Part shown: positions 29,398 through 60,031 of the stretch, in pieces
How positions within the stretch are numbered: position 1 is the first letter of the stretch
How the letters are laid out: the number at the start of each line of letters is the position of its first letter
NCBI GenBank assembly: GCA_033875325.1
Contig: JANRKA010000111.1
Span: 249 to 64,248, forward strand
From: Elusimicrobiota bacterium
GTDB taxonomy: Bacteria; Elusimicrobiota; Elusimicrobia; UBA1565; UBA9628
Length of the DNA: 64,000 nt
Direction: 5' to 3'
Position numbers and translations under genes: made by a program
The notes under the pieces: model-generated
Databases searched by the model: none
The model's input: only the letters and a program-made list of their open reading frames with translations
What the model was told of the DNA's origin: nothing

Positions 29398-29402
29398 GCG
29401 CC

Positions 29403-30915: not shown

Positions 30916-31470
30916 TCACGACACGCGGTAGTCGATGTTGTCGAAGTCCACGACGCTGACGAAGCGGCGGGACCCGGAGGCGGGCGGACGCTCGAGCGAG
31001 GCGTAGAACACCGTTTCGGCGCCGGCGGGCACGCCGTCGAAGCCCGCGGCGAAGGTGAAGCGCGCCCCGTCCAGGCCGTGGCCCTCCGCGGTCTCGCGCA
31101 GCAGCTCGAGCAGTTCGTGGTCGGCGACGAAGACGAAGTCGCGCCGGCCCGAGGCGTATTCGCGGTCCAGGACTGCGGCGATGTTCTCCTGGAGTTGGCG
31201 GAAGATGCGCAAGGTGTAGACGGTGTAGTGGTAGGCCTTGCGGCTCTTCTCCAGAGCGCCTTCCAGGGTGAGCAGGTAGCGCGTGCGCTTCCAGTCGAGC
31301 TGGGTGACCTTGAGCAGGCCTTTGCGGGCGAGCCGGCGGATGAGGAGGTTGGTCGTCCCCAAAGACAGGCCGAGGCTCTCCGACAGGTGCCGTTGAGTGG
31401 CCTCCGGGTTGCGGGAGATCTCCTGGATGAGCAGGAACTCCTTCTCGGCGAGACCGTCTTTGGTAGCCAT
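30916..31470 (-). CDS. Winged-helix regulator, EPS-associated MarR-like N-terminal domain plus about 85-aa C-terminal domain of unknown function
   Basis: NPEATQRHLSESLGLSLGTTNLLIRRLARKGLLKV...YLLTLEGALEKSR resembles the EPS-associated MarR family pattern. Its own promoter region carries the GTTC-N7-GAAC motif. Confidence 0.65.
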   Translation of the reverse strand: MATKDGLAEKEFLLIQEISRNPEATQRHLSESLGLSLGTTNLLIRRLARKGLLKVTQLDWKRTRYLLTLEGALEKSRKAYHYTVYTLRIFRQLQENIAAVLDREYASGRRDFVFVADHELLELLRETAEGHGLDGARFTFAAGFDGVPAGAETVFYASLERPPASGSRRFVSVVDFDNIDYRVS

Positions 31471-31472
31471 GC

Positions 31473-31489
31473 GTTCGATTATTGAACAT
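31473..31489. promoter_or_regulatory. Candidate operator site S1: GTTCG-ATTAT-TGAACAT
   Basis: 11-nt core TTATTGAACAT is identical at 31479-31489, 42919-42929 and 59979-59989. Lies between the divergent regulator (ATG 31470) and epimerase (ATG 31532) genes. Confidence 0.5.
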
Positions 31490-31531
31490 CATACCTTATT
31501 CTGTGTTCATAATTTGTACGATGGGCCGGAT

Positions 31532-32497
31532 ATGAAGCCTGGCCTCTCCGGGTCCACGGTGCTCGTCACCGGCGCGTACGGCTTTTTGGGCCAAGGGCTG
31601 GTCGCGGCACTGCTCGACGCGGGCGCCTCGGTCGCGGCCGTGGGCCGGGACGCCGGCAAGGCGCGGGAGCGTCTGGGCGAGCGCCGGGGATTGCGCTTCA
31701 TCGCCGGCGACGTCAACGAACCGCTCGCCTACGACGGCCCGGCCGACTTCGTCGTCCACGCGGCCAGCGCCGCCGCGCCGAAGCGTTTCGGCGTCGACCC
31801 CGTGGGCGTGCTCTCGCCCAACGTGTTCGGAACCCGCAACCTGCTCGAACTGGCGCGCGCCCGCAAGACGCGCAAGTTCCTTTTCGTCTCCAGCGCCGAG
31901 GTGTACGGGGTCGTGCCCGAGTCCCGCCAACCCATCCTCGAGTCGGAGCCCGGCGGCGTGGACCCCACGGCGCTGCGCTCCTGCTACGCCGAATCCAAGC
32001 GCATGGGCGAGGCCCTGTGCGCGGCCTGGCACCGACAACACGGCGTGCCCGCCGTCATCGGGCGCCTCTTCCACACCTACGGACCCGGCATGGACCCCGA
32101 CGACGGCCGCGTGTTCGCGGATTTCACGGCCGACGCGGTCGCCGGGCGGGCCATCACGGTCAAGGGCGACGGGCTCGACCGCCGCGCGTTCTGCCATCGC
32201 GACGACGCCGTGGCCGGCCTGCTGACCTTGCTCGAGCGCGGCGTCCCCGGCGAGGCCTACAACGTGGCCAACGACGAGGCCGAATGCGGCGTGTTGGAAC
32301 TCGCCGAGCGGATCCAACGCCTGTTCCCGAAGCGGGTGCCCGGCGTCATCAAGGCGCCGCGTCCCGCCGGCCCCGCCTTCGCCGCCAGCCCCGTGCGCCG
32401 CTCGCTGCCCTCCACGGCCAAGCTGCGCGCCCTGGGCTGGGCGCCGCGCATCGGCCTCGACGAGGGCTTCCGCCGCACCGTGGAGAGCTACCTATGA
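31532..32497 (+). CDS. NAD-dependent sugar-nucleotide epimerase/dehydratase (SDR)
   Basis: VLVTGAYGFLGQGL glycine motif, YAESKRMGE (YxxxK). Confidence 0.85.
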   Translation: MKPGLSGSTVLVTGAYGFLGQGLVAALLDAGASVAAVGRDAGKARERLGERRGLRFIAGDVNEPLAYDGPADFVVHAASAAAPKRFGVDPVGVLSPNVFGTRNLLELARARKTRKFLFVSSAEVYGVVPESRQPILESEPGGVDPTALRSCYAESKRMGEALCAAWHRQHGVPAVIGRLFHTYGPGMDPDDGRVFADFTADAVAGRAITVKGDGLDRRAFCHRDDAVAGLLTLLERGVPGEAYNVANDEAECGVLELAERIQRLFPKRVPGVIKAPRPAGPAFAASPVRRSLPSTAKLRALGWAPRIGLDEGFRRTVESYL

Positions 32498-33393
32498 GCG
32501 TTCTCAAGCTGCGCGAGGAGTTCCTCGCCGGCCGTCTGGACAAGCCCGCGTACATCAAGGCCATGACCGCGGAGCACGCGGCGCTGCACGAATACGCCGT
32601 CCTGCTCAAGGACTCGCAAGTCGAGCGCCTGGACATCACCGAGGACGGCGTCGTCGCCGTCACGCGCGACGGCCTGCGGCTCGTCCTGGTGTCCGGCGAC
32701 GCGCGCCTGGCGCAGGCCGAGATGCTGAACTTCGGCAGCTACGAGCAGGAGTTATGGGACACGGCCTTCGCCTTGGTCCCGAAAGGCGCGATCGTCTACG
32801 ACGTCGGCGCCAACGCCGGCGTCTTCGCCCTCGCCCTGGCGCGCCGCGTCCCCGGCGCCGTCGTGCACGCCTTCGAGCCCGTCCCGACGACCTTTGCCCT
32901 GCTCGAACGCCATCTGGCGATGAACGGCGGCGCGTCCGTGCGGCCGCACCCCTACGGCCTCTCGGACAAGACCGGGACCGTGACCTTCCACATCTCCGAC
33001 CAGGGTTCGGCCAACGCGTCGGCCGCGCAGCTGGGCAACGGGCCCACGCTGACGGCGGAGGGGAAGCTGAGGACGATGGACGGCGTCGCTGGCGAGCTCG
33101 GCGACCCCGCCTTCGTCAAATGCGACGTGGAGGGCGGCGAACTGCTCGCCTTCCGCGGCGGGCTCAAGACCTTGGAGCGCGCCAAACCCGTCGTGATGAC
33201 CGAGATGCTGCGCAAATGGGCGGCGGGCTTCGGCTACCACCCCAACGACATCATCGATTTATTCGCCGGGCTCGGCTACCGTTGCTTCGATTCCCGGCTC
33301 AAACCCTTCGGCCGCGTCGACGAGAAGACGTCGGAGACGAACTACTTCTTCCTCCACCCGGCCAAACACGCCGGGCTCATCCCCGCGGCCTGA
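32494..33393 (+). CDS. FkbM-family methyltransferase
   Basis: ATGA overlap. VYDVGANAGVFALALA..., FEPVP, DVEGGEL blocks typical of FkbM. Confidence 0.8.
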   Translation: MSVLKLREEFLAGRLDKPAYIKAMTAEHAALHEYAVLLKDSQVERLDITEDGVVAVTRDGLRLVLVSGDARLAQAEMLNFGSYEQELWDTAFALVPKGAIVYDVGANAGVFALALARRVPGAVVHAFEPVPTTFALLERHLAMNGGASVRPHPYGLSDKTGTVTFHISDQGSANASAAQLGNGPTLTAEGKLRTMDGVAGELGDPAFVKCDVEGGELLAFRGGLKTLERAKPVVMTEMLRKWAAGFGYHPNDIIDLFAGLGYRCFDSRLKPFGRVDEKTSETNYFFLHPAKHAGLIPAA

Positions 33394-33405: not shown

Positions 33406-35313
33406 TCAGCGGCCCGCGCGCAACGGCGCCATCTCGGGCGTGGCGTCGAGCTTCTCCGACGCGTCCTTCACCTGTTTGCGCAGCGACACGCCTTCCTCGA
33501 CCGGCTTCGGGGTCCACAGGGTGACCGCGTTGCGGCCGAACTTGCGCAGCTGGTAGGCGAAGTATTCCGCGAAGTTCTTCATCGCGGCCCGGAAGCCGCG
33601 GCGGCGGAATTCCTTGACGCCGATGACGAGGGGGATGAGGCGCCGCAGGTGGTAGAGCGCGATGGGGTGGCGCAGGAGGATGGGGCCGAGTTCGGTGGCG
33701 CCCTGGATCTTCCCGCTGCGGTAATCCCGATCCATCTGCCGGATGGCGGCCTTGATGTCCTCGAAAGAGCCGCTGAGGCCGGTGATGACCTTGGAGTCGG
33801 CGAAATAGGTCTTGCCGTCGCTGTCGCGCACCGATACGCCGTAGGGCTTGTAGTGGACCCGGTTCCAGAGGTCGAACTCCTTCAAGCCGAACTTCCGGAT
33901 GTAGGCGTAGTTGGCGCTGGCGCGGATCTGGTGAGCCCAGGACTTCCAGATCAGGTGCGGGACCTCGGTGTGGTTGACGGTCGAATCGATGTCGCGCGCG
34001 TTTTTGTCCGAAACGCGGAACAAGTAGGCTTCCTCGCCGTCGATGGTCGGCTCGATGTGGCCGCAGACGCGGCCGGATTCGTACAGCGGCGTGCCCGGCA
34101 GGGCCTGGGCGTAGTTGACCGAAAGCTCCGCGGGGTGGACGAAAGGGTCCTCGCTGTAGACCGCGCGCAGGAAGGCGTCGGTCTCCTCGATGGTCTCCTC
34201 GGTCTCGCCGGGCATGCCGACGACCATCTGGGGGCTGTAGTAGAGGTTGGCGGCCGGAGTGAGCTTCACGACCTTGTAGTTGTCGGCCAAGGTCAGCGCC
34301 TTCTCCATGACCGCGAGCATCTTCTCGCTGCCCGTCTCCGTGCCGTAGGCGACGCTGGTGCAGCCGGCGTCGTACATCTTCTTGAGCGACTCCGCGTTGA
34401 TGCGGTTGACCCGGATCCCGCCCACGCCCCACAACACGTCGAACTTCTTGATCATGTCGCAGAACGGATGCAGCCAGGCCGCGTGCGTGCCGAAGTTCTC
34501 GTCCGTGAAATACACGAAGCCGATGTTGTAGCGCCGGATGAGCTCTCCCAGGCGCTTCTCGATGAGCTCGACGGGCATGTAGCGGATGCCTTTCGTGAAG
34601 CGGTGGCAGAAGGTGCAGCGGGCCACGCAGCCCTTGGAGGCGTAGAAGCGGCCGAAGCGCTTGCCGCGCCGCTTGGGGTCGTAGTAGCGGATGTCCGAGA
34701 CGAAAACGCCGTGCTGGCCGAGGTCGGCGGAGAAGCAGCGCTCCACTCCGGGCGTGGCGTCGGCGATGTCCCAGTCCACGTCGAAGATCTCCGTGTCCTC
34801 GAGCTGCGGGGCGTAGGGCGTGATGACCATCTTGCGGTTCTCGTCGCGGAAGGCGATGCCCTTGATGGCGCCGAGCTCCTGAGGCGACATCGTGCCGGCG
34901 ACCCAGTGGTCGACGATCTCGCGCATGGTGACTTCGCCTTCGCCCGTGCAGCAGATGTCGATCTCGGTCTTGGCCATGAGCACGTTGACGTTGGCCACGA
35001 GGTTGCCGCCGCAGACGATGAGAAGGTCCGGGTACATCTTGCGCAGGTCGGCGGCGAGCTGCTTGACGAACGCGTAGGAGGTGGAGACCACGGCGCTCAG
35101 GCCCACGATGTCGGGTTTTTGGAGCCGGAAATACTCGAGGACTTCCTCGTATTTGGGCCGCAGGATGTTGATCTCGTAGAGCGACACGTTGTCGTAGCCG
35201 TGGCGCTTGAGGGCGGTCATGATGGCCAGCGACGCGATGGGGAGGTGGGATGACGGAGCCCGCAGCGGGATGGTGGCGAAGACGATCTTCGGGTTCTTCG
35301 TCTTGGTGGTCAT
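33406..35313 (-). CDS. Cobalamin-binding-domain (class B type) radical SAM enzyme
   Basis: N-terminal B12-binding-like domain (PDIVGLSAVVSTSY, LIVCGGNLVA). KGCVARCTFCHR CX3CX2C motif. 635 aa. Confidence 0.85.
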   Translation of the reverse strand: MTTKTKNPKIVFATIPLRAPSSHLPIASLAIMTALKRHGYDNVSLYEINILRPKYEEVLEYFRLQKPDIVGLSAVVSTSYAFVKQLAADLRKMYPDLLIVCGGNLVANVNVLMAKTEIDICCTGEGEVTMREIVDHWVAGTMSPQELGAIKGIAFRDENRKMVITPYAPQLEDTEIFDVDWDIADATPGVERCFSADLGQHGVFVSDIRYYDPKRRGKRFGRFYASKGCVARCTFCHRFTKGIRYMPVELIEKRLGELIRRYNIGFVYFTDENFGTHAAWLHPFCDMIKKFDVLWGVGGIRVNRINAESLKKMYDAGCTSVAYGTETGSEKMLAVMEKALTLADNYKVVKLTPAANLYYSPQMVVGMPGETEETIEETDAFLRAVYSEDPFVHPAELSVNYAQALPGTPLYESGRVCGHIEPTIDGEEAYLFRVSDKNARDIDSTVNHTEVPHLIWKSWAHQIRASANYAYIRKFGLKEFDLWNRVHYKPYGVSVRDSDGKTYFADSKVITGLSGSFEDIKAAIRQMDRDYRSGKIQGATELGPILLRHPIALYHLRRLIPLVIGVKEFRRRGFRAAMKNFAEYFAYQLRKFGRNAVTLWTPKPVEEGVSLRKQVKDASEKLDATPEMAPLRAGR

Positions 35314-35373
35314 GGGGGGGCCTCGGCGGGGGCGTAGTGGGGCTTCGACGGTAATTTTACTACATTGCGGCCG

Positions 35374-37089
35374 TCAGGTCCCTTCCATCTCCGTCGGTTT
35401 GACCTGGGGTTCCATGTCGGTCATGGGGCGGCCGAAGGCGATCTTGGGGTAGGCGTTGGCGGTCATCGGGACGGCCACTTCCAGCAGGAACGGCGCGGTG
35501 GGGTCCTTCCACAAGGCGGCCAGCCCCGCGGCCACGCCGGCGGGGCCCTCCACGCGCGCCGCGCCGATGCCGTAGGCCTTGGCCACCGCGACGAAGTCCG
35601 GCGCGGAGTAGCCGTCCACGGTGGAGCCGTAACGCGCGTCGAAATAGCTCTCCTGGAACTGGCGGACCATGCCGTGGCATTCGTTGTCGAGCACGACCAT
35701 CTTCACGGGCAGCTTGTGGTGGGCGATGGTCTGCAGTTCCTGGACGTTGAGCTGGAAGCCGCCGTCGCCCGCGACGGCGAGCCAGGGCTTGCCGCCGGAG
35801 GCGAACACCGCGCCCATCGCCGCGGGCAAGGCGAAGCCCATCGCGCCCATGCCGCCCGAGGTGTGGAACTCCTGGGCGGGGGTCAGGCGGGCGGACTGGG
35901 CCGCCCACATCTGGTGCTGGCCCACGTCCACGCACCAGCCCGCCGCGGCGCCGGAGGCGGCGGAGAGCTCGCGCATGAAGAGGTTGGGATTGACGCCCTG
36001 GAGGCCGGCCAGCTCGTTCTCCTCGGGCCACTGCCGCCGCAGCCCGTCGATCTCGGCCAGCCAGGCGGAGCGGTCGCGTCCGGCGCCCGCCGCGAGCGGG
36101 GCGGCCTCCTCGAGGAATGCCGCGAGGTCGGCGTGAACGGTCGTGCAGCCGGGCACCCGGTTGTTCATCTCGGACGCGTCGGCGTCGACGTGCACGATGG
36201 TCCGCCCTTTGCGCCAGGACTCCACGTCGGCGCCGGTCTGTCGGATGTCGAGGCGGCTGCCCAGGACCAGCACCGCGTCTGCGCGGCCCATGGCGAGGTT
36301 CGTCCAACGGTTGCCGTAGCTGCCGATGAGCCCGGCGCGCAGGGGATGGCCGCCCGGGAGGGCGTCCACGGCCATCAAGGAGTGGATGACGGGCGCGCCC
36401 AACGCCTCGACGAACGCGCGGAAGGCGGCGCGGGCGCGGGACGCGCGCAGGCCGCCGCCGACGAGGATGAGAGGGCGTTCGGCCTTGGCGATGACGGCCA
36501 GCGCCGCGGCGACGGAGCCCGCGGGGGCGCGGCGCCCGGGCTCGGCGACGACGCGCCTGACGGGGTCCTTGAGGTCCGCGCGCTGAAGGTCCATGGGGAT
36601 GTCCACGAGCACGGGTCCGGGGCGTCCGGACAAGGCGACGCGGAAAGCCCGCTCCAGCGTCGGGGCGATGTCCTCGGCCTTCGTGACGCGGTAGGCGGCC
36701 TTCGTCACCGGGCCGGCCATCGCGACGACGTCGGTCTCTTGGAAGCCGAGTTGGCGCACGCCGCGCGCGCCTTTCTGCTCATGGAGGTTGACCTGGCCGG
36801 TGATGAACACCGCGGGCGAGGAGTCGAAATGGCAGGAGCCCACGCCGGTGAGCAGGTTCACCGCGCCCGGCCCGCTGGTGGCCATCGCGACTCCGGGCGT
36901 GCCCGCGACGCGGCCCCAGGCGTCGGCCGCGAACGCCGCCCCCTGCTCGTGGCGGACGCTGACGAGGCCGGGCGCGCCGCGGCGGTGGAAGGAGTCCACG
37001 AGATGCGCGATCATGCCGCCGACGACCTCGAAGGCGCGGCTCGTGCCTTGCGCGGCGACGAAATCGGCGATCCAGTCGGAGGCTTTCAC
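35374..37089 (-). CDS. Thiamine-diphosphate-dependent enzyme, acetolactate-synthase-large-subunit-like (YerE-like candidate)
   Basis: GTG 37089 in a GTGA overlap with the rfbH stop. ATSGPGAVNLLTG; ThDP motif GDGGFQLNVQELQT...VVLDNE. Confidence 0.8.
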   Translation of the reverse strand: MKASDWIADFVAAQGTSRAFEVVGGMIAHLVDSFHRRGAPGLVSVRHEQGAAFAADAWGRVAGTPGVAMATSGPGAVNLLTGVGSCHFDSSPAVFITGQVNLHEQKGARGVRQLGFQETDVVAMAGPVTKAAYRVTKAEDIAPTLERAFRVALSGRPGPVLVDIPMDLQRADLKDPVRRVVAEPGRRAPAGSVAAALAVIAKAERPLILVGGGLRASRARAAFRAFVEALGAPVIHSLMAVDALPGGHPLRAGLIGSYGNRWTNLAMGRADAVLVLGSRLDIRQTGADVESWRKGRTIVHVDADASEMNNRVPGCTTVHADLAAFLEEAAPLAAGAGRDRSAWLAEIDGLRRQWPEENELAGLQGVNPNLFMRELSAASGAAAGWCVDVGQHQMWAAQSARLTPAQEFHTSGGMGAMGFALPAAMGAVFASGGKPWLAVAGDGGFQLNVQELQTIAHHKLPVKMVVLDNECHGMVRQFQESYFDARYGSTVDGYSAPDFVAVAKAYGIGAARVEGPAGVAAGLAALWKDPTAPFLLEVAVPMTANAYPKIAFGRPMTDMEPQVKPTEMEGT

Positions 37090-38411
37090 AGGGCTTTGAA
37101 GAAGGCGTCGAAGCGCTCGAGCATGTAGGCGACGCGCGCCTCGTCGATGGAGGGGTGCACGCCCACCCAGAAGGTGCCGCGCATGACTTGGTCGGCGCCG
37201 GTCAGAGAACCCACGCGGCGGTGCGCGACGCCCTTGAAGTAGGGCTGACGCAGGATGTTGCCCGCGAACAACGGGCGCGTCCCGACCATGTTGGCCTCGA
37301 GGAACGAGGTCAGCTTCTCGCGTTTGAACGGGGCGCCTTCGCGCACGGTCAAAGGCAGGCCGAACCAGGAGGGCTCGGAGTCCGCCGTGGCCTCCGGCAG
37401 GATGAGGTGCGCCTCGTGCCGCTTCAAGCCCGCCACGAGCGCGTCGAAGTTGCGCCGGCGCGCGGCGACGAACCGGTCCAGGCGCTTGAGTTGGACCGTG
37501 CCGACCGCGGCCTGCAGGTCGGTGGCCTTGAGGTTGTAGCCCGCGTTGGAGTAGGTGTACTTGTGGTCGTAGCCGTGCGGCAGTTCGCCCAGGTCCCAGT
37601 CGAAGCGTTTGCCGCAGGTGTTGTCCTGGCCGGTCGGGCACCAGCAGTCGCGGCCCCAGTCGCGGAAAGACTCGAGCGGCCGCTTGAGCGAGCTCTTGGA
37701 GGTGACGACGGCTCCGCCCTCGCCCGTGGTGATGTGATGCGCCGGGAAGAAGGAGAAGGTGCCGGCGTCGCCGAAGGTGGAGACGAGTCTGCCCCGGTGC
37801 GTCGCGCCCAGCGCGTCGCAGCAGTCCTCGATGAGCCAGAGTCCCTTCTTCTCGCAGAGCTCGGCCAGCTTCGCGGCCTCGAACGGGTTGCCCAGCGTGT
37901 GCGCGAGCATCACGGCCTTGGTCTTGGGCCCGACGGCCTCCGCCACCATGTCCGCGGTGGCGTTGTAGGTCGGGAGGTGGACGTCCACGAACACGGGCGT
38001 CAGCCCGTTCTGCAGCACGGGGTTGACCGTGGTGGGAAAGGACGCGGCGGTGACGACGACCTCGTCGCCGGGCTTGAGCGCGCGCTCCGCCAGGGAGGGC
38101 GCGGTGAGCGCGGAGAGCGCGAGCAGGTTGGCGGAGGACCCGGAATTGACGAAGAAGGCGAAACGCGCGCCCGCGGCCTTGGCCAGTTCCGCCTCGAACG
38201 CGTCGGCGTAGCGCCCCGCGGTCAGCCAGAAATCCAGGCTCGCGTCCACGAGCGCGGCGACCTCGTCCTCGTCGAACCACTTGCCCGACGGAGGGATGTA
38301 GGTTTTGCCCGGCTCGAACGCCCTCGGGGCGAAGCGCTCTCGCGCGTAGGCGCGGGCGGCGCCCAGCGCGGCGGCGCGTTTCTCGGGGTCGGGGGCGGGG
38401 CGCAGGCTCAC
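37086..38411 (-). CDS. rfbH: CDP-4-keto-6-deoxy-D-glucose 3-dehydrase (E1; RfbH/DdhC)
   Basis: FSFFPAHHITTGEGG (His replaces the PLP Lys) and the Fe-S motif DWGRDCWCPTGQDNTCGKRF. GTG 38411 in a GTGA overlap. Confidence 0.9.
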   Translation of the reverse strand: MSLRPAPDPEKRAAALGAARAYARERFAPRAFEPGKTYIPPSGKWFDEDEVAALVDASLDFWLTAGRYADAFEAELAKAAGARFAFFVNSGSSANLLALSALTAPSLAERALKPGDEVVVTAASFPTTVNPVLQNGLTPVFVDVHLPTYNATADMVAEAVGPKTKAVMLAHTLGNPFEAAKLAELCEKKGLWLIEDCCDALGATHRGRLVSTFGDAGTFSFFPAHHITTGEGGAVVTSKSSLKRPLESFRDWGRDCWCPTGQDNTCGKRFDWDLGELPHGYDHKYTYSNAGYNLKATDLQAAVGTVQLKRLDRFVAARRRNFDALVAGLKRHEAHLILPEATADSEPSWFGLPLTVREGAPFKREKLTSFLEANMVGTRPLFAGNILRQPYFKGVAHRRVGSLTGADQVMRGTFWVGVHPSIDEARVAYMLERFDAFFKAL

Positions 38412-39475
38412 GGGCGTCCCGCCGGGACGGCGGCCGCGTAGTCGGCGATCTGGCGGCGCGTATAGGCGCGCGCGTCGAAGCCGGGCGCGGAGGCGGCCTT
38501 GTACCAGACCATGGCGGCGGACACCGCGCCGCGGGCGTCCCACACCGGCGACCACTTCAAGCGCGTCCGGGCGAGCGTGGAGTCCAGGCGCAGCGCGGCG
38601 GCCTCGTGCGGGGTTTGGGCCGGCTGGGGTTTCCAGGCGGCGTCCCCGCCCCAGGCCGCGGCGGCGGCGTCGGCCACCTGGGCGACGGTGACGCCGTCTT
38701 CGGCCGGGCCGAAGTTCCAGGCGCGGGCCGCGTCCCGGTCGCCGGCGAGCAGGCGCGCGCCGAGCGTGAGGTAGCCCGACAGCGGCTCCAGCACGTGCTG
38801 CCAGGGGCGAATGGAGCTCGGATTGCGCACGAGAGCTTCGCGTCCCGCCGCGAAGGCGCGCGCGCAGTCGGGCACGAGGCGGTCGGCGGCGAAATCGCCG
38901 CCTCCGACGACGTTGCCCGCGCGGGCCGAGGCCACGGGCAGAGAGAACGAGCGGCGATAAGACGCGGCGACGACTTCGGCGCCGGCCTTGCTCGCGCTGT
39001 AGGGGTCGTGACCGCCCAAGGAGTCGGCTTCGGCTCGCGGGCGGGGGTCCTCGACGCCTTCGTAGACCTTGTCGGTGGTGACGACGACCAGCGCCTTGGC
39101 CGTCGGCGCGCGGCGCGCGGCGTCGAGCACGCGCGCGGTGCCCATGACGTTGACCTCGAAGGTGTCGAGCGGCTCCGCGTAGGAGCGCAGGACCAGGGCC
39201 TGAGCCGCCAGGTGGAACACGGCCTCCGGGCGAGCCGCGGCGAAGGCGGCGTCCACGGTTTTCTGGTCGCGGACGTCGCCGATGCGCGACTTCACCGTCG
39301 CGTCGAGGCCCAGACGGGAGTACAGAGGCGCGTCGCCCTCGGGCGGCAGCGCCAGGCCGTGCACCTCGGCGCCGAGCTCGGCCAGCCACAGCGACAGCCA
39401 GGAGCCCTTGAAGCCGGTGTGGCCGGTGACCAGGACGCGGCGGCCCTTGTAGGCGCCCCCGAAAGCCGTGTTCAC
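38408..39475 (-). CDS. rfbG: CDP-glucose 4,6-dehydratase
   Basis: VLVTGHTGFKGSWL, YSASKAGAE. GTG 39475 in a GTGA overlap with the rfbF stop. Confidence 0.9.
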   Translation of the reverse strand: MNTAFGGAYKGRRVLVTGHTGFKGSWLSLWLAELGAEVHGLALPPEGDAPLYSRLGLDATVKSRIGDVRDQKTVDAAFAAARPEAVFHLAAQALVLRSYAEPLDTFEVNVMGTARVLDAARRAPTAKALVVVTTDKVYEGVEDPRPRAEADSLGGHDPYSASKAGAEVVAASYRRSFSLPVASARAGNVVGGGDFAADRLVPDCARAFAAGREALVRNPSSIRPWQHVLEPLSGYLTLGARLLAGDRDAARAWNFGPAEDGVTVAQVADAAAAAWGGDAAWKPQPAQTPHEAAALRLDSTLARTRLKWSPVWDARGAVSAAMVWYKAASAPGFDARAYTRRQIADYAAAVPAGRP

Positions 39476-40239
39476 CAGACTTTCCACGGCGCGCGGCCGG
39501 TGGCCCACAACGACTCGAGGTTCGTTTTGTCGCGCAAGGTGTCCATCGCGCACCAGAAACCCTCGTGACGGTAGGCCCCCAGGCGTCCGCGCCGGGCGAG
39601 CTCGGTGACGGGCTCGCCCTCCCAGCGCGTGGCGTCGTCCTTGACGAGGTCGAGCGCCTTGGGTTCGACGACGAAGAAGCCGCCGTTGATCCAGGTGCCG
39701 TCGGCGTCGGCTTTCTCCCGGAACTCCTTCACCTTGGTTCCGGAGAGGTCCAAGGTCCCGAAGCGCATCGGGGCGCGCACGGCGGTGAGCGTGGCGTCGG
39801 ACTTGCCCTTCTTGTGCGCGGCCGTCAGCGCGCGCAGGTCCACGTCGGAGACGCCGTCGCCGTAGGTCATGTGGAAAGGACCGCGGTCGAGGTAGGGCCG
39901 CACGCGTTTGAGGCGGCCGCCGGTCATGGTGTCGGCGCCGGTGTCCACGAGGGTCACCTTCCACGGTTCGGCGGCGCGGTGATGGACCGTCATCTTGTTG
40001 CGCGCCATGTCGAAGGTGACGTCGGAGCTGTGCAGGAAGTAGTTGGCGAAGTACTCCTTGATGACGAACCCCTTGTAGCCCAGGCAGATGACGAAGTCGT
40101 TGACGCCGTGGGCGGAGTATATCTTGAGGATGTGCCAGAGGATGGGCTTGCCCCCGACTTCCACCATGGGTTTGGGGCGCGTGCCCGTTTCTTCGGAAAT
40201 CCGAGTCCCAAGTCCGCCGGCGAGGATGACCGCTTTCAT
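39472..40239 (-). CDS. rfbF: Glucose-1-phosphate cytidylyltransferase
   Basis: MKAVILAGGLGTRISEETGTRPKPMVEVGGKPILWHI...; 255 aa. Confidence 0.92.
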   Translation of the reverse strand: MKAVILAGGLGTRISEETGTRPKPMVEVGGKPILWHILKIYSAHGVNDFVICLGYKGFVIKEYFANYFLHSSDVTFDMARNKMTVHHRAAEPWKVTLVDTGADTMTGGRLKRVRPYLDRGPFHMTYGDGVSDVDLRALTAAHKKGKSDATLTAVRAPMRFGTLDLSGTKVKEFREKADADGTWINGGFFVVEPKALDLVKDDATRWEGEPVTELARRGRLGAYRHEGFWCAMDTLRDKTNLESLWATGRAPWKVW

Positions 40240-40249
40240 CGTTCCTCCG

Positions 40250-40258
40250 ATTTTATCA
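40250..40258 (-). promoter_or_regulatory. Extended -10 TGaTAAAAT, 10 nt upstream of the rfbF ATG; second copy of the 18-nt cassette
   Basis: Minus strand GTGAAATGATAAAATCGGAGGAACGATG. The TGA is also the stop of the upstream GT2 gene. Confidence 0.4.
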
Positions 40259-41263
40259 TTTCACGCCCGCGGCCGCCCCGAGCTTGCGGGCGGCGTAATA
40301 CAAGGGGGAGAGCCAGGCGTTGGGGTACGGCGCGGCGCTCAGGAGAATCCGGACCAGGTCGGCGTAGGCCCAACCAGAGGCGTCGCGATGGACGAACATG
40401 TTGGCGAGGTCGGGAAGCAGGTGCGCGAGCGCCCGGTTCTTGCAGCGCCGATAGCGGTCTTCGGGAAGGCCGTTTTTGCGGTACTCATCGAGGGCTTCGA
40501 TGAGGCGCACGCTGCGCAGGAACGGGTACAGCGGCGCCCATTCGCGCGCGCCGGTGAGGCAGGCGGTGAGCGGTCCCGGGTGGAAGTAGGCCGTCGAGCG
40601 CGCGAAGGCCTTGGCGAAGATCTTCAAGTGCGGGCAGGTGTTGTCGAAAGTCGAGAGATGGCGGGTGTCGGACACCGCCGCGTCGTCGAGGACGCCGGCG
40701 TTCTTCACCCAGGCTTCTCGCCGGAACACCGACAGGAAGATGCCCAGAAGGAAGTCGAAAGAAACATCAGGGTCCACGAGGTCGAAGAAGGGCAGCGGAC
40801 CTTCCTGGAGCCGGGGCGAGAAGCGCGGCAGCTCCGCGGGGAGGTTCGTCGTGTCGAAGGGCTGGGGGAAGCCCAGGACGAATTCCGCGTCCACGCGGGA
40901 GGCGTTGACGAAGAAATAATCCACGGAAGGGTTGGCGGCGAGCAGGCGCAGCGCGGTGTCCAGAGCGTCGGGGCGCAGCAGGTCGTCGTCGCCGAGAAGC
41001 CAGACGAACTCGCCGCGAGCCGGTTCGACCGCCTTCAGGTAATTCTTCGCCGCGCCGAGATTGGTCTCGTTGCGGCGATAATCCACGCTCATCTTCTTGG
41101 CCATCGCCGCAACGATCGTTGCCGTGTCGTCCGTCGACGCGTTGTCGGAGACGCACACCTGCACCTCGCCCTCGGCGCGCTCGCGCGCGATGCGGATGGA
41201 TTCGAGGCAGTTGGCGAGGTGCCCGGCCCGGTTGTAGGTCGGGACGCAGACGGACAGCTTCAT
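40256..41263 (-). CDS. Glycosyltransferase family 2
   Basis: LSVCVPTYNRAGHL, VSDNASTDDT, LLGDDD. ATGA overlap with the ABC gene stop. Confidence 0.8.
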   Translation of the reverse strand: MKLSVCVPTYNRAGHLANCLESIRIARERAEGEVQVCVSDNASTDDTATIVAAMAKKMSVDYRRNETNLGAAKNYLKAVEPARGEFVWLLGDDDLLRPDALDTALRLLAANPSVDYFFVNASRVDAEFVLGFPQPFDTTNLPAELPRFSPRLQEGPLPFFDLVDPDVSFDFLLGIFLSVFRREAWVKNAGVLDDAAVSDTRHLSTFDNTCPHLKIFAKAFARSTAYFHPGPLTACLTGAREWAPLYPFLRSVRLIEALDEYRKNGLPEDRYRRCKNRALAHLLPDLANMFVHRDASGWAYADLVRILLSAAPYPNAWLSPLYYAARKLGAAAGVK

Positions 41264-42918
41264 CGGGCCGCGGCGGCCAAGACGAAGGAGCGCGGATTCG
41301 CGGGAGCGAAGGCCGCGGCGTCGTGCGTCACGGCCACGACGGGCAGTTCTCGGGCCAGCTCCGCGATGCTCGCCACCAAAGACGCCTTGCTCGCCTCGTC
41401 GAGGCCGTTGGTGACCTCGTCGAGGGCGAGCAGGTCGGCTTCCTGGGCCAGGGCCCGGGCCACGGCGAGGCGGCGGCGTTCGCCGCCCGACAAGGAGCGC
41501 CCGGCTTCGGCGAGCGCGGCGTCCAAGCCGCCGCGGGCGCGCACGAAGTCCGCGGCGCCGGCGCGCTCGAGGCTGCGCCAAAGGGCCGCGTCATCGAGAC
41601 GCCCGGAGGCGTCGAGGTTCTCGCGCACGGTCCCGCTGAAGAGGTGGACTTCCTGCGCGACGTAAGCGATGCGCGCGCGGCGGGTCGTCGCGTCGAATTC
41701 GGCGCCGGAGGCGCCGCGGTAGACGACGCGCCCCTTCTCCGGGGCGAAAAGGCCGGCGAGCAGATTGACGAGGGTGGTTTTGCCGGCGCCCGAGGGTCCG
41801 GTGACGAGCAGGAGGCGGCCGGGTTCCACGGTCAAAGTCACCCCGTCGAGCACGCGCCGTCCGCCGTGCGAGTAGGTCACGGCGTCGAGACGCGCGGCCG
41901 CGAGGCGCTCGCCGAGCGGCGCGCGGTCGGGCCCGGCGGGCACCGTCACGAGCGCGGCGACGGGCGCGATGCTTCCCGAGAGCCGCGTGAGGTTGCCGAT
42001 GGCGTTGACGAGGCCGTTGAGTTGGGCCGCCGCGCGCGTCGCCAGGACGCCGACGCCTCCCAGCGCGGCGAGCCCGCCTTCGGAGCCCCACGCGGCGACG
42101 CCCAGCAGGATCAGGCCCATGCCCAGCGGGTTGAAGGCGGTGAGCAGTCCGAGGGTGCCCCCGAGTTGGAGCTCGCGGTTATAGATGTCGTCTTGCCGCC
42201 GCAGACCGCGCCGCGTCAAGCCGGCCTCGTCGCCGGAGGCCTTGGCTTGGAACAGGCCGCTGAGCGTCTCGGTGAGGTCCGCGGCGAGACCCTGGCGCGA
42301 CTCGGCCTGGCTGCGGGAGAGCCGCGTCTGCAGGCCGTAGACGCCCTTGAGGAAAAGCCACGCGGGCGCGCCGACGGCGACGAGGACGATGAAAAGGGAA
42401 GGCGCGAGCGCCACGGCCATGCCGGTCAACAGGCCGGCCGTGAGCACGGCGTACACGGCGGTGAAAAACGAGGTGACCAGCTTGGTCAGGGTCGCCGCCT
42501 CCTCGGTGAGCGCTCCGGTCCAGCGTCCGACCTGCTGAGAGCTGAGGGCGTCCCAACGCCCGTGAGCCAGCTTCTCGAAGCAGGCCGCTTGGATGTCGCG
42601 CCGCAGGCGGCCGCCCATCACCGTCTCGATGAAGGTCAACAGCGCCAGGAGCAGTCCTTTGGCGAGGAACAGGGCCCCGACGGCGGCGGCGGTGGGCGCG
42701 CCGAGTCTATTGAGGAGAGGCGTCAGGAAGCCGGTGTCGGGCGCCGCTCCGGCGGCGACGAGGCGCACGAGTTGGATCCAGGCCAGCCCGTCGATGGCGG
42801 CGCTGACGGGGGTGAGCACGTAATAGGATGCCAACAGGGCCCACAGCGCGCGGTCGGGGAGGCCGCAGCAGCGAAGGGTTTTCCATGCTTGCCGCAGGGC
42901 GTCGGCCAGCTTGTTCAT
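41260..42918 (-). CDS. ABC exporter, fused permease/ATPase half-transporter (MsbA/PglK-like)
   Basis: Six-TM-type N-terminal half. Walker A GPSGAGKTT, signature LSGGERRRL, Walker B LLALDE. Confidence 0.85.
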   Translation of the reverse strand: MNKLADALRQAWKTLRCCGLPDRALWALLASYYVLTPVSAAIDGLAWIQLVRLVAAGAAPDTGFLTPLLNRLGAPTAAAVGALFLAKGLLLALLTFIETVMGGRLRRDIQAACFEKLAHGRWDALSSQQVGRWTGALTEEAATLTKLVTSFFTAVYAVLTAGLLTGMAVALAPSLFIVLVAVGAPAWLFLKGVYGLQTRLSRSQAESRQGLAADLTETLSGLFQAKASGDEAGLTRRGLRRQDDIYNRELQLGGTLGLLTAFNPLGMGLILLGVAAWGSEGGLAALGGVGVLATRAAAQLNGLVNAIGNLTRLSGSIAPVAALVTVPAGPDRAPLGERLAAARLDAVTYSHGGRRVLDGVTLTVEPGRLLLVTGPSGAGKTTLVNLLAGLFAPEKGRVVYRGASGAEFDATTRRARIAYVAQEVHLFSGTVRENLDASGRLDDAALWRSLERAGAADFVRARGGLDAALAEAGRSLSGGERRRLAVARALAQEADLLALDEVTNGLDEASKASLVASIAELARELPVVAVTHDAAAFAPANPRSFVLAAAAR

Positions 42919-42956
42919 TTATTGAACATTCTACCCCCTACCGAGGGCAGGGTCAA
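42913..42956 (-). promoter_or_regulatory. Promoter TTGACC-17-TAGAAT plus candidate operator site S2 (GTTCA-TTTAT-TGAACAT, 42913-42929) overlapping the ABC gene ATG
   Basis: Minus strand: TTGACC 42956-42951, TAGAAT 42933-42928, then GTTCAATAA, then ATG 42918. Confidence 0.5.
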
Positions 42957-44791
42957 GAGCGGGGCTTGAGTCCGGCGACGGCCCGTTTCCAGGCCGCGGG
43001 CCAATCCGCGTCCGTCCAGGCGTACTCGCGGCGGAACGCCTCGATGGCGGCGCACCGCGCCGGGTCTCGCATCCAGGCATCGGGCGACGCGGAAAAGTCC
43101 TCGTAAGCGCGCAGCAGAGAGTCCACTCCGCGGTGGATGACGCCGACTTTTTCCAGGGCGTCGAAGAACCCCCGCGCGCGCGGCGCCTCGCGATAATATG
43201 TGCGGGGCCAATGGACCATGGCGGGCACGCCCGCGCCCAGGCATTCGACGAACCCGGTGCTGGGCTGGTCCCACAACACGAGACGGCATTGCCCCAACAG
43301 CTCGGCGGTCAGGCCTTTGTCGAGTTCCGGGCGGCACCGGTACAACGGGCCGGCTGTCGACTCGAGGCGCGTTATGGTCTTTCGCGTGAAGCGGCGGGAC
43401 GCGTGGTTGTAGGGCTTGTGGAGGACGCGCGCGCCGCGCGAGTTGAGCCCGGTGACCAAGGCTTCCAAGCCGAGCGCGATGTCGCGCGCGAAGTCGTTGC
43501 GGGAGATGCCCGCGCCGCTCGAAGTCGGCGGGAAGCGCTGGTATTTGTCGGAGACCAGCAGGACATCGTAGGGTTTGGCGGCGGCCGAGACCGACTGCCA
43601 GGTCCGCGCCAGGGCGGCGCGTTCTTCGCTCAACCACGGACAGGGAAGCGGCGCGGCTTTGAGGCCGCGGCAGCGCGGGTGATCGGGAAACTCCGTCCAG
43701 CCCCAGGTGATGAAGCGGTCGCATGCCGCCAGCTCGAGCTCGATGACGGCGGAGAAATCATCAGTGAACCCGTAATGCACGCCGTGCTGGCAGCCGACGA
43801 CCTCCATGCCGAGTGAGCGGGCCGCCGCCAGCATGTAGGCGGGGTATTCGCCGCCGCCGCCGGAGAACAGGAGCGGCGCCGGCGCGAAAGAGGCCAGGCG
43901 CTCGCGACAGGCGCGCAGGCGCTCGGGCGCGGCCTCGAGAAGCGACGGGGGAAGGCATTTCGTCAGGAAGCGCCTGAACACGGAGACGGCCGTCGCGCGC
44001 GCGCTCGGCTCGACGATGCCCGCCAGGGCGAGCACCCTCTCGAGAGCGGGCAGCGCCGGCGCGAGCGCCGAGTCGAGGACGCGCTCGCGCAGTTTCGCAT
44101 CGGGCGCGGCGTCCTCCCAAGCGGGCGGCCGCGACTGCTCGGAGAGGCGTCCCGGCGCGTAAAGGGCTTTGTCGCGCAGGGGGATGGCCGCGTAGGCCAT
44201 CGCCAGCGCCGGCACGGAGCCCCAACGGCGCGAGGAGACGGCGAGCAGGCGGTTGCGCACGCGCCGCAGGAGGGGCAACCGCTTGAAATTGTGATTGGGG
44301 AACGCGGCTTCCCGCGTCGCGTCAGCGAGGAGTCCGTGCGTCTCGGTTTTCAGCGACCAGCATTCCCCCAGCATGACGAGGACGGCTTGATTGAAGACGG
44401 CGCCGTCGCAGACGTGAGCGTTGAGGTCATCGAGGCGGCTGATGGCGGGGAGCGGGCCGTAGTCGGCGAGCACGATGGAGTCGCTCGATCGCGCGTCGAG
44501 CGCGCCGCGCAGGCGCAGCAGGCGGTCCCCGAAACAGTGGGTGGGGGGCACCGCGGCTTGGCGCGCGAGAACGCGGCAGGCCGCCGGATCCAGGCCGAGT
44601 TCGCGCGCCATGGCGTCTCCCAGGGCGCGAGAGAGGTCCTCGTAGAGAGGGGAGAGGGCCGCGTTGAGAGCGGACAGAGAGGCCGCGGGGAGCGGATGGC
44701 CGCCGCCATCCTCATCGGGGAAAAAGCCGGCCGACCCTGGATGGCGCTCCGGTTCGACGCTGAGGAGCGCGCGGTGCCCGTCGGACGGCAT
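42953..44791 (-). CDS. Uncharacterised protein, possibly LIC12162-family putative transferase (GT-B-like C-terminal half)
   Basis: 612-aa coding-like ORF. Its ATG directly follows the upstream TAG (TAGATG). C-terminal pattern LVLWDQPSTGFVECLGAGVPAMV resembles a nucleotide-sugar-binding Rossmann half. The family call is from memory only. Confidence 0.45.
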   Translation of the reverse strand: MPSDGHRALLSVEPERHPGSAGFFPDEDGGGHPLPAASLSALNAALSPLYEDLSRALGDAMARELGLDPAACRVLARQAAVPPTHCFGDRLLRLRGALDARSSDSIVLADYGPLPAISRLDDLNAHVCDGAVFNQAVLVMLGECWSLKTETHGLLADATREAAFPNHNFKRLPLLRRVRNRLLAVSSRRWGSVPALAMAYAAIPLRDKALYAPGRLSEQSRPPAWEDAAPDAKLRERVLDSALAPALPALERVLALAGIVEPSARATAVSVFRRFLTKCLPPSLLEAAPERLRACRERLASFAPAPLLFSGGGGEYPAYMLAAARSLGMEVVGCQHGVHYGFTDDFSAVIELELAACDRFITWGWTEFPDHPRCRGLKAAPLPCPWLSEERAALARTWQSVSAAAKPYDVLLVSDKYQRFPPTSSGAGISRNDFARDIALGLEALVTGLNSRGARVLHKPYNHASRRFTRKTITRLESTAGPLYRCRPELDKGLTAELLGQCRLVLWDQPSTGFVECLGAGVPAMVHWPRTYYREAPRARGFFDALEKVGVIHRGVDSLLRAYEDFSASPDAWMRDPARCAAIEAFRREYAWTDADWPAAWKRAVAGLKPRS

Positions 44792-45682
44792 CTAGGCTTT
44801 CTGGAACAGCACGGTCATCATGTTCCCCCAGAACGCGGGGCTGCGGGCGACCTCGTCGCGGCGGCCTTGGCGGATGAGATCGGCGTCGCGCAGGACGGTC
44901 TCATGGTCCTTCGCTGGCGAAGCGTAAGGCGTTTCGAGGTAGGGATGCGCCTGGAAGACGAGCTTGAGCCCGACGGAGGCGCACAGGCGCGACAGGGTGT
45001 CCACGCTGAAGTAGTAGATGTGCTGGATGGGGTCGAATTGGTTCCACTTCTCCCGGTAGAGGTCGGCCGAGTAGCTCGACACGTCCGGCGTCGCCGTGAT
45101 GTAGAAGCGCCCGCCCGGGCGCAGCAGCTCGGCGACGCGTTTGACCGCGGCGCGGGGGTCGGGGAGATGCTCGATGACGCCGCGCATGGTGACGACGTCG
45201 AAGGAGGCCGGGGCGAAGCCGTCCTGGCCCAACTCGCGGTTCTGGATGCGCTCCGCCAAACGCGGGTTGCGTTCCCGCGCGAGGGCGACCGCCGCCGGGT
45301 CCTTCTCCAGGCCGTTCTTGGTGAAGCGGTCGGAGAGCTTTTCCAGGAAGAAGCCCGCGCTGCAGCCGACGTCGAGCAGGTCGCCGCGGTCGACGAACTG
45401 TTCCAGGTAGGCGCGGTCGATCTCGTACATGCGCCCGCGCTGCTCCATCTTCTTGGCGTCGCTGAGCCGGAACTTGATGTAGTCGGTGTAGTACAGGTTA
45501 AAGCCGGCCTCGGTGAGAAAGGGGTCCACCCAGACCAGGCCGCACGCGCGGCAGCGCACCGCGCGGAACACGCCGACTCGCGCCCACTCCTCCTTGTCGC
45601 CGCCCCCGCAGATGAGGCAGGGGCGCGGCTGGGCGAGGTGCTTCTCGAAAGGGGAGTAGTCCACGGTCTCGATGCGGATCAT
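44792..45682 (-). CDS. SAM-dependent methyltransferase with N-terminal Cys4 zinc-ribbon
   Basis: CLICGG...CRACG, motif I LLDVGCSAGFF. Confidence 0.8.
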   Translation of the reverse strand: MIRIETVDYSPFEKHLAQPRPCLICGGGDKEEWARVGVFRAVRCRACGLVWVDPFLTEAGFNLYYTDYIKFRLSDAKKMEQRGRMYEIDRAYLEQFVDRGDLLDVGCSAGFFLEKLSDRFTKNGLEKDPAAVALARERNPRLAERIQNRELGQDGFAPASFDVVTMRGVIEHLPDPRAAVKRVAELLRPGGRFYITATPDVSSYSADLYREKWNQFDPIQHIYYFSVDTLSRLCASVGLKLVFQAHPYLETPYASPAKDHETVLRDADLIRQGRRDEVARSPAFWGNMMTVLFQKA

Positions 45683-45722
45683 GAGGTGTTCTCCTGGTGG
45701 TCGGCGGGGCGAGGGTTCCCGC

Positions 45723-46394
45723 TCAGGCGGTTTTGCGCGCGTACCAGCGCTCGAAGCTGTTGTCCTTGAGGTATTGCGGGGCGAGCGTGGGTTTGTCTTT
45801 TTTGTCCGCGAAGTACTCGTCGATGGCCTTGCGCGCGCCGGGGTATTTGATGGAGTAGTACTCGTCGAAAATCATGACGCCGCCGACGGACAAGCGTGGC
45901 CACAACTCCCTAAGGCAGATCTGGTAGGACTCATAGAAGTCGCAGTCGAGGAACGCGAGCGAGAGGCGCGCCGGCGCCTTCGAGAGCGTGTCCTGGAACC
46001 AGCCGGGCACGACGTGCACGGGACCCTCGTAAGCGACCGCCTCGAGCTTGCGGCGCACGAGCTCGATGCTGGTGTCGCCGAAGTACCCCTGCGCGGCCTT
46101 CCGGTTCTGCGCGCCGTCCACGAGTTGGGTGTCCGCCTCCTTCGGGGCCGGCAGGCCTTGGAAGCTGTCGAACGCCCAAAGCCCTTTGCGGCTGCCCAGG
46201 GAGCGGAGCTTGGCCGCGATGGCGGCCAACGAGCTGCCGCGGAAGATGCCGCATTCGGCCACGTCGCCGGGGATTTCACGGGTCGTCTCGAGCATGTCCA
46301 AGACGATGGAGATGTTGCTGGGCTTGCGCGGGTTGGTGATCTCGCGCGACTCCCAGTCGCCGTCGGTCCAGGTCGTCAAGAGGTCCGTGGTCAT
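45723..46394 (-). CDS. TylF/MycF-family (macrocin-type) O-methyltransferase
   Basis: GDVAECGIFRGSS, FDSFQGLP, FLDCDFYES, VMIFDEY blocks. Confidence 0.75.
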   Translation of the reverse strand: MTTDLLTTWTDGDWESREITNPRKPSNISIVLDMLETTREIPGDVAECGIFRGSSLAAIAAKLRSLGSRKGLWAFDSFQGLPAPKEADTQLVDGAQNRKAAQGYFGDTSIELVRRKLEAVAYEGPVHVVPGWFQDTLSKAPARLSLAFLDCDFYESYQICLRELWPRLSVGGVMIFDEYYSIKYPGARKAIDEYFADKKDKPTLAPQYLKDNSFERWYARKTA

Positions 46395-47356
46395 CGGGCG
46401 CGTCGCTCCTTGAAAAAAGATACCAGTTTGCCCGCGGCGTGCGTGAAGGCCTTCTCCTGGCCATCGTAGGACATGCCGCCGCAGTGGGGCGTAATCATGA
46501 GATTGTCGTGGGCCCGGGCGTAGCGCACGAGCGGGTGGCGGCTCATGTCGCCCTCGATCTCGCCGTCGAGCACGTCCAGGCCCGCGGCGCGGACCCGTCC
46601 CGACTTCAGCGCCGCGAGCAGGGCGCGCTCATCGACGAGGCCGCCGCGGGAGGTGTTGACGAAGAAGACCCCCGGACGCATGCGCCGGAACCAGGAGGCG
46701 TCCACCATGCCGCGCGTCTCGGGCGTCAGGTGCACGTGCAAGGTGATGATCTCGCTGCGGCGCAGGAGCGCGTCGAGGCCCACCTGCTCCACCCAGCGGT
46801 CCTTGACCTTGACGAAGGGGTCGTGGGCCAGGACCTTCATGTCGAAGCCGCGGGCGAAGCGGGAGTACATGCTTCCCAGCCGGCCGTAGCCCACGATGCC
46901 CACGGTCCTCCCCTGCAGCTCGCGACCCCGGAAACGCGTGTAGTCCCACTCGCCTTTGCGCGCCGAGTCGAAGCTCCAGGGCATGTTGCGCGCGATGTTG
47001 AGCGTGAGGCCGAACGCGTGCTCGGCCGTCGAGGTGATGGTCTTGAGCAGGGCCATGTCCTTGGTGAGGGACATGACCGTGACCCCGCGCGCGGCGCACG
47101 CGGCCTTGTCGATGTGGTCCGTGCCGGTGGACGGCGTGCAGATGACGCGCAGGCGCGGCGCGGCGTCGAGCACCTCGCGGTCGAGCATCAGCTTGGTGTT
47201 GGGGAAGATGGCGTCGGCGTCCCGCGCGAGCCGCAGGGTCTCGCGGCGCGAAGGATGGTCGGTATAGACGACGCGCCCGGCGCTTTCCAAGAGCCGGCGG
47301 GTCTCGCGCAGATGGCTTACGGGGACGGTGACGAGGATCTTAGGCTTTCTGCGCAT
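46391..47356 (-). CDS. D-isomer-specific 2-hydroxyacid dehydrogenase (PGDH-like)
   Basis: GRTVGIVGYGRLGS NAD motif, catalytic-domain blocks, PHCGG. Start overlaps the upstream gene by 17 nt. Confidence 0.85.
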   Translation of the reverse strand: MRRKPKILVTVPVSHLRETRRLLESAGRVVYTDHPSRRETLRLARDADAIFPNTKLMLDREVLDAAPRLRVICTPSTGTDHIDKAACAARGVTVMSLTKDMALLKTITSTAEHAFGLTLNIARNMPWSFDSARKGEWDYTRFRGRELQGRTVGIVGYGRLGSMYSRFARGFDMKVLAHDPFVKVKDRWVEQVGLDALLRRSEIITLHVHLTPETRGMVDASWFRRMRPGVFFVNTSRGGLVDERALLAALKSGRVRAAGLDVLDGEIEGDMSRHPLVRYARAHDNLMITPHCGGMSYDGQEKAFTHAAGKLVSFFKERRAR

Positions 47357-50488: not shown

Positions 50489-50493
50489 GGTCC

Positions 50494-53845: not shown

Positions 53846-53846
53846 G

Positions 53847-57315: not shown

Positions 57316-57322
57316 GGGTCGG

Positions 57323-60017: not shown

Positions 60018-60031
60018 ACTCATCCGGCGGC

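Follow-up and report, generated by a model that had tools for sequence, protein, structure and literature searches.

Five copies of a 17-bp palindrome lie in the window (the whole stretch of 64,000 nucleotides analyzed here), and they are most likely operators of the adjacent 184-aa winged helix-turn-helix (wHTH) protein, which would repress its own gene and a surface glycan cluster by promoter occlusion. Based on sequence comparisons, the probability of this reading was estimated at about 0.8.

A palindromic box at five positions in the window

The true repeat unit was found to be a 17-bp palindrome, TGTTCAAnnnTTGAACA, with the symmetric form TGTTCA-N5-TGAACA. The initial annotation had described the unit as GTTCR-N5-TGAACAT; the inverted repeat in that description stands, but the trailing AT is the end of the -10 hexamer at S1, S2, and S3, or the start of an ATG at S4. 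All four sequences listed in that annotation were confirmed at their positions: S1 at 31472..31488 (CGTTCGATTATTGAACA), whose position is shared with 27 orthologous loci; S2 at 42912..42928 (TGTTCATTTATTGAACA); S3 at 59972..59988 (TGTTCACTTATTGAACA), which heads the long minus-strand cluster; and S4 at 60065..60081 (CGTTCAGAGATTGAACA), which serves a plus-strand operon. A weaker fifth site, S5 at 31504..31520 (TGTTCATAATTTGTACG), had been missed. This site is 12 nt ahead of the epimerase start at 31532, and its centre is 32 bp from that of S1.

The GTTC-N7-GAAC dyad, said to be kept in all four listed sites, matched the 64-kb window exactly four times, at S1 to S4. In shuffled windows this pattern was found 0.86 times on average, and since 1 of 100 shuffles reached four matches, the count alone is modestly unusual. 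The longer pattern GTTCANTTATTGAACAT, allowing at most three mismatches, matched only S1 to S4 in the window, compared with 0.01 matches expected. The GC content of the window is about 70%, which makes an AT-rich palindrome conspicuous.

A symmetrised weight matrix (consensus TGTTCAATAATTGAACA) was then built from 27 foreign sites, with the window sites left out. The window scores were 27.2 bits for S1, 32.3 bits for S2, 29.6 bits for S3, 23.8 bits for S4, and 18.4 bits for S5, and no other site exceeded 8 bits. The best score among 50 shuffles of the window was 17.9 bits, which S5 barely exceeds; the S5 17-mer is identical in the closest relative, L002 (at 9950). Departures from the consensus were seen at the outer bases of S1, and in S4 and S5.

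Paired boxes were observed at several loci. The centre-to-centre distance was 32 bp at 31472-31520 of the window, 33 bp in L002 (9950-9999), 32 bp in L022 (8329-8377), 28 bp in L023 (9931-9975), 21 bp in L029 (4154-4191), and 93 bp for S3 and S4 (59972-60081). As several of these spacings are close to whole numbers of helical turns, the protein might bind cooperatively or form higher-order assemblies where promoters diverge.

Genes next to the boxes

Genes were called with a codon-usage model and annotated with Pfam, which upheld the earlier assignments of a wHTH/MarR-like regulator, an ABC exporter, a HisF-like protein, and a cytidylyltransferase. The regulator gene (30916..31470, minus strand) is monocistronic and is the sole copy in the window. 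It is flanked by genes for NeuB, NeuC-like, PglD-like, DegT, GT2, and ABC-exporter proteins, a surface-glycan locus. Divergent from it is a two-gene operon (31532..33393, plus strand) encoding an NAD-dependent epimerase/dehydratase and an FkbM-type methyltransferase.

The minus strand carries a run of 24 co-directional genes from 59978 down to 33406. Nine of them are downstream of S2 (33406..42918) and encode an ABC exporter, a GT2 enzyme, a nucleotidyltransferase, a dehydratase, a DegT aminotransferase, a TPP enzyme, a B12 radical-SAM enzyme, and others. The fifteen downstream of S3 (42953..59978) encode HisF/HisH paralogues, two NeuB-cytidylyltransferase fusions, a NeuC-like 2-epimerase, a PglD-like acetyltransferase, a CBS-nucleotidyltransferase, methyltransferases, and others; the HisH/HisF paralogues adjoin a 410-aa protein without a Pfam match. 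On the plus strand, the S4 operon (60075..63968) has at least four genes, for a cytidylyltransferase, a GFO/IDH/MocA oxidoreductase, a DegT aminotransferase, and an epimerase/dehydratase, a count that is a lower bound as the window ends shortly after 63968. In total the cluster includes two DegT aminotransferases, plus dehydratases, methyltransferases, and GT2 enzymes. The predicted targets are a cluster for synthesis and export of a nonulosonic-acid-type (pseudaminic/legionaminic-like) glycan.

The two NeuB/cytidylyltransferase fusions, at 47340-49145 and 55603-57315 on the minus strand, have opposite domain orders, NeuB-SAF-CTP_transf_3 and CTP_transf_3-NeuB-SAF. This opposite order suggests that two different nonulosonic acids may be made and activated in one cluster. 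No homolog of a 592-aa protein encoded downstream of the L003 and L005 sites was found in the window.

The regulator protein

The HTH region of the regulator scored above the Pfam gathering thresholds of MarR (PF01047; 26.6 bits, cutoff 24.6) and MarR_2 (PF12802; 29.8 bits, cutoff 27), and the match to HTH_24 was 36.9 bits (cutoff 21.9). The best NCBIfam match was TIGR04176 (MarR_EPS), over residues 9-100, at 53.2 bits against a curated cutoff of 88. In the AlphaFold model (pLDDT 82), a wHTH at residues 5-66 is followed by a long helix at 69-106 and a small β-α-β-β-β domain at 111-172, and in this model the regulator is without the canonical MarR dimer architecture. The initial annotation had named the protein an EPS-type MarR-like regulator; the MarR-like part agrees with the Pfam thresholds passed, but the model does not show the canonical MarR fold and the TIGR04176 cutoff was missed.

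A search with the regulator retrieved 182 homologs at E <= 1e-5, nearly all of about 184 aa and from Elusimicrobiota MAGs, with an invariant recognition helix SLG[T/M]TNLLI (in its longer form SLG[T/M]TNLLIRRL). Five distant long-form relatives were tested against TIGR04176 and scored 48-66 bits, all under the cutoff of 88. A profile search of PDB sequences gave only weak matches limited to the HTH, the best being FabT (E = 0.005), and Foldseek with the regulator model found nothing in PDB at E <= 0.001.

The C-terminal 80 aa gave no Pfam match even at E <= 10. Among 1.8 billion representative proteins, the same segment matched its own family and a few long proteins over short stretches, which are presumed to be spurious. 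Pfam, Foldseek, and the protein search revealed no ligand-binding fold or family in residues 105-184. The 30 proteins scanned from 28.6 to 64 kb of the window, five of which have no Pfam match, included no further HTH protein.

Conservation of the box with the regulator gene

The initial annotation had proposed the motif as a candidate operator of the adjacent regulator, and this was supported by comparison across genomes. One genome per species was scanned, which gave 28 loci encoding relatives of the regulator, from 92% down to 34% identity. The loci are from Elusimicrobiota, Omnitrophica, Spirochaetia, Leptospirales, and Planctomycetota (counted as five phyla). The search of these loci used GTTC-N7-GAAC only, with no promoter term. 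In all 28 genomes with a regulator homolog, the box heads the transcription unit of the regulator. In 27 of the 28 loci, GTTCA-N5-TGAAC is 17-132 bp upstream of the regulator gene itself; in the remaining locus, L022, the dyad precedes a radical-SAM gene, and the regulator gene follows 5 nt after the end of that gene.

When these sites were aligned, 26-27 of the 27 agreed at each half-site base, the spacer was variable, and the outer flanks were T in 27/27 and A in 25/27. The nine bases before the box read TGnTAnaAT, an extended -10 element, in most loci; the -35 was not conserved. At a threshold of at least 17 bits, the matrix matched 41 times in 437 kb of orthologous loci, whereas shuffles of the window gave 0.36 matches even at the laxer threshold of 8 bits. 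The further high-scoring boxes elsewhere precede genes for a PseB-like dehydratase, DegT, NeuB, an ABC exporter, radical-SAM enzymes, and a CBS-nucleotidyltransferase, and another box-headed gene encodes a protein that is N-acetyl sugar amidotransferase-like by eye.

Metagenome contigs were also searched with the DNA pattern TANNATGTTCAANNNTTGAACA alone, which includes the -10 element and is biased to AT-rich DNA, and at least 120 loci were obtained. A regulator homolog was encoded in 62 of 120 loci among the matches listed, at GC contents from 22% to 70%. In at least 43 of these 62, the homolog was directly downstream in the same orientation, beginning -25 to +330 nt after the box and in most cases within 30 nt of it. 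In about 10 more loci among the matches listed, the palindrome abuts the regulator gene and the -10 element used in the search faces the divergent neighbour. Homologs of proteins of the window's cluster were encoded in 59 of the 120 loci among the matches listed (NeuB in 29 and DegT in 22), and the regulator, a cluster gene, or both were present in 80 of them. The remaining loci with neither, about 40, are short contigs, or probably chance matches in very AT-rich DNA as estimated from base composition.

The homologs from the motif-selected loci were of two sizes, about 100 aa and 172-221 aa. Six short homologs were tested against TIGR04176 and scored 92-132 bits, which makes them bona fide members, while the two long ones tested were under the cutoff. 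In these members, TAnnAT-GTTCAAnnnTTGAACA precedes the start codon by 0-25 nt. Since the short TIGR04176 members and the long forms carry the box, it would be common to the whole superfamily. The recognition helix is SLGTTNLLIRRL in the window protein as against SLGKLNYCLK in the short forms. On these sequence grounds, the window protein is a long-form relative of TIGR04176 with an added C-terminal α/β domain as modelled. By curated score it is not a member of TIGR04176, and by model it does not have the canonical MarR fold, yet it would work like both.

Among the low-GC loci L043-L148 (22-29% GC), many marine contigs have a bona fide MarR_EPS gene of about 100 aa with the box 0-25 nt upstream, and NeuB or DegT genes often come directly after it. 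A search of plasmids with a short-form protein gave no match.

The box always abuts a -10 element, as might be expected if another factor read it. Such a factor could be a global regulator encoded elsewhere, or RNA polymerase/sigma itself with the box as a discriminator or initially transcribed element, and the wHTH gene would then be nearby only incidentally. This explanation was judged quite unlikely. The box and the regulator gene occur together in 28/28 genomes of five phyla and in the 62 metagenome loci from 22% to 70% GC described above, and the dyad symmetry is perfect out to the outer A (25/27), a position that the -10 element does not constrain. In addition, other promoters in the window, such as TGATAGAAT before ATG 29403, are without the dyad; the dyad is therefore specific to the regulon, and the idea that it is a general feature of the promoters of this organism was rejected. 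An operator of the linked wHTH protein fits these data better than a site for an unlinked factor.

Position of the boxes relative to promoters and start codons

At S1, S2, and S3, the first T of the palindrome is the last T of the -10 hexamer on the transcribed strand, and the minus-strand hexamers are TATGAT (S1), TAGAAT (S2), and TAAGAT (S3). S1, read on the minus strand, comes after its -10 hexamer (31493..31488) and ends 1 nt before the regulator ATG at 31470. A consensus promoter scan gave TTGACC-17-TAGAAT for S2 (minus strand, 42956..42928), TTGACT-18-TAAGAT with an upstream TG for S3 (60017..59988), and TTGACG-18-TATACT for S4 (60032-60061), where the box starts 4 nt past the -10 hexamer. 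S5 starts about 1 nt past a tentative -10; the same scan called no sigma-70-type promoter in the S1/S5 region.

The four listed sites had been placed at operon heads, which is right for S1, S3, and S4. The case of S2 is different: the 34-bp gap that holds it is flanked on both sides by genes of the 24-gene co-directional run, and the promoter it marks is therefore internal to that run. S3 and S4 share a 96-bp divergent gap (59979-60074).

Candidate start codons were found in the right half-site at S2 (ATG 42918) and S3 (GTG 59978), and at S4 either TTG 60075 or ATG 60081 is in or at the box. With start codons inside or just past the right half-site, the leaders would be only a few nt long. This arrangement suggests very short or absent leaders and an operator that overlaps the coding sequence. 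With the candidate starts at 42916-42918, 59976-59978, and 60075-60077, three target proteins would begin with Met-Asn (NTG AAC). A similar overlap of operator and start, TTG AAC, was seen in L003, L005, and L010.

A dyad so close to start codons might also act as RNA: in a 5' leader or a read-through transcript it could form a small hairpin and hide the start codon. The 31-nt segments at S1, S2, and S3 folded at -6.3 to -8.1 kcal/mol (z -2.3 to -3.8 in comparison with shuffles), the right arm holds the start codons at S2, S3, and S4, and, as S2 is within a co-directional array, read-through RNA would hold both of its arms. However, because the -10 element abuts the box, the left arm is at -6 to -2 and would be untranscribed from the adjacent promoter. 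The arm sequence is invariant across phyla with no compensatory changes, the box is fixed to the -10 element and not to the start codon (at a distance of 17 to 132 nt), and S4 folds no better than shuffles. A scan of the whole window with Rfam gave no match, so the dyad is not explained by a known RNA family. The hairpin explanation was considered very improbable, and a DNA operator is preferred.

The register between box and promoter bears on the sign of regulation. In about 34 of the 41 high-scoring sites, the first T of the box is the last T of the -10 hexamer. A register as fixed as this is seen more typically with activators or promoter elements than with repressors, and the lack of a conserved -35 also favours a regulator that binds the box but activates, or acts dually, rather than simply repressing. 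On the other hand, a site at -7 to +10 occupies the place of RNA polymerase itself. Activators are known to bind in the -35/-10 spacer or upstream of it. Near-consensus extended -10 elements generally need no activator, and the register is not absolute, being offset by 4 nt at S4 and by 1 nt in the distant phyla. Activation or dual action is therefore unlikely, and repression remains the preferred reading.

The promoter without the dyad at 29389-29405 has its extended -10 (TGATAGAAT) 5 nt before ATG 29403 of a 501-aa protein without a Pfam match, whose gene adjoins the regulator gene. This promoter looks like a leaderless type.

Proposed mechanism of repression

In the proposed mechanism, a dimer of the regulator, assumed from the dyad symmetry, would set one recognition helix on each GTTCA half-site. 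With 10 bp from centre to centre, the two half-sites lie on one face of the DNA, which fits a dimer in successive major grooves. At S1, S2, and S3 the box would span about -7 to +10 of a near-consensus, often extended -10 promoter, including the start site, and by this promoter geometry the bound protein would repress by blocking RNA polymerase. The boxes at S4 (4 nt later) and S5 (about 1 nt past a tentative -10) would still cover the start region. Negative autoregulation would follow from the box that precedes the regulator gene itself. In all, the regulator is predicted to repress its own gene and four more transcription units, comprising at least 31 genes and about 32 kb.

Release would probably follow a signal, possibly sensed by the extra C-terminal α/β domain. 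Physical binding, the dimer stoichiometry, the repressor sign, and the transcription start positions are what we infer from sequence; the steps of the mechanism lean on established bacterial promoter geometry and not on data from this organism.

A further idea, which is possible but tentative, is that about 22 bp (the -10 end, the operator, the start site, and often the start codon) together with the wHTH gene form a portable control module that moves horizontally with islands of nonulosonic-acid and surface-glycan genes. In this idea, the long forms would have gained a new, unrecognised sensor domain; its ligand is perhaps a nucleotide-activated sugar, in which case the end product would exert feedback. 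A portable module would explain an identical box in genomes from marine ones of 22% GC to Elusimicrobiota of 70% GC.

Relation to known systems

In kind, the proposed system is an ordinary autoregulated winged-helix repressor/operator system. Classical MarR autorepressors, such as E. coli MarR and S. aureus MepR, are winged-helix proteins that bind a palindromic operator over their own promoter and control divergent genes, and a small ligand or oxidation releases them from the DNA. The window system resembles them, in silico, in its winged-helix protein, the palindrome overlapping the regulator's own promoter, and the divergent neighbours. The canonical MarR fold has about 140-160 aa with a central wHTH between N- and C-terminal dimerisation helices. 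In contrast, the wHTH of the window protein is modelled at the extreme N-terminus (5-66), with no flanking dimerisation helices.

The 'MarR family EPS-associated transcriptional regulator' TIGR04176, an equivalog of about 105 aa, shares the HTH match, the polysaccharide-cluster setting, and the upstream box with the window protein. The difference is in size: the window protein has 184 aa with a long helix and an α/β domain, whereas members of that family have a single domain of about 100-105 residues.

Rex and CggR/SorC proteins also have an N-terminal wHTH followed by an α/β domain, and CggR and Rex-family chains were present in the Foldseek list. However, the TM scores were 0.2-0.3, with none at E <= 0.001, and the C-terminal domain of the window protein has only about 65 residues. 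A Rex-like redox repressor, which would have a C-terminal Rossmann domain resembling NAD(H)-binding domains, was rejected, as Rex/RSP chains were found at E 0.36 or worse with a probability of 0.1-0.2, and a Rex/CggR/O-methyltransferase-like layout was likewise not significant by Foldseek against PDB.

The operator of B. subtilis DeoR, a SorC-family protein, is ATTGAACAAAATTTCAAT, located at -60 to -21 and bound by a tetramer (PMC11229326). It shares the heptamer TTGAACA with the box, and the DeoR DNA-binding domain was among the structural matches limited to the HTH. Its half-sites are reversed (TTGAA-N-TTCAA), though, and the protein belongs to another family. The DeoR operator was rejected as the same box on its arrangement and promoter position. 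The 'Cheo box' of Gram-positive LexA, GAAC-N4-GTTC, shares the tetranucleotides GAAC and GTTC with the window box, but it has them in the opposite order and with another spacing, and it serves an unrelated regulon.

No operator or regulon of TIGR04176 was found in the searchable literature. Likewise, neither the box nor the regulon was described in the literature on MarR_EPS, on MarR with pseudaminic/legionaminic acid, on Elusimicrobia with nonulosonic acid, or on the motif. The box and the regulon of this regulator family therefore appear to be undescribed.

To our knowledge, the transcriptional control of clusters for nonulosonic acids and surface glycans is known mainly from a few pathogens. 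For TIGR04176 and its long-form relatives, a widespread family of regulators, the present data give a first candidate operator with its regulon, and they tie this family to nonulosonic-acid and surface-glycan biosynthesis clusters. Because it is short, varies hardly at all, and is joined to a sigma-70-type -10 element, the box lends itself to assays in E. coli or in vitro even where the source organism cannot be cultured. The box could also mark such glycan islands in metagenomes, and if the C-terminal domain of the long forms senses a pathway product, the protein might be developed into a biosensor.

Other features of the window

Upstream of the glycan region, an ORF of about 1808 aa at 14367-19793 (minus strand) has a third-position GC of 0.96; that its product could be a large surface protein is only speculation. 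At 7498-8366, 869 bp of 75% GC between divergent genes carry no gene call from the codon-usage model. An inverted repeat at 760-851, within the convergent intergenic gap 757-930, has 43-nt arms that are 95% complementary, a 6-nt loop, and tandem 14-mers (CATAACAAAGGGGA, twice), and it may represent a strong terminator that acts in both directions, or else a small repeat element.
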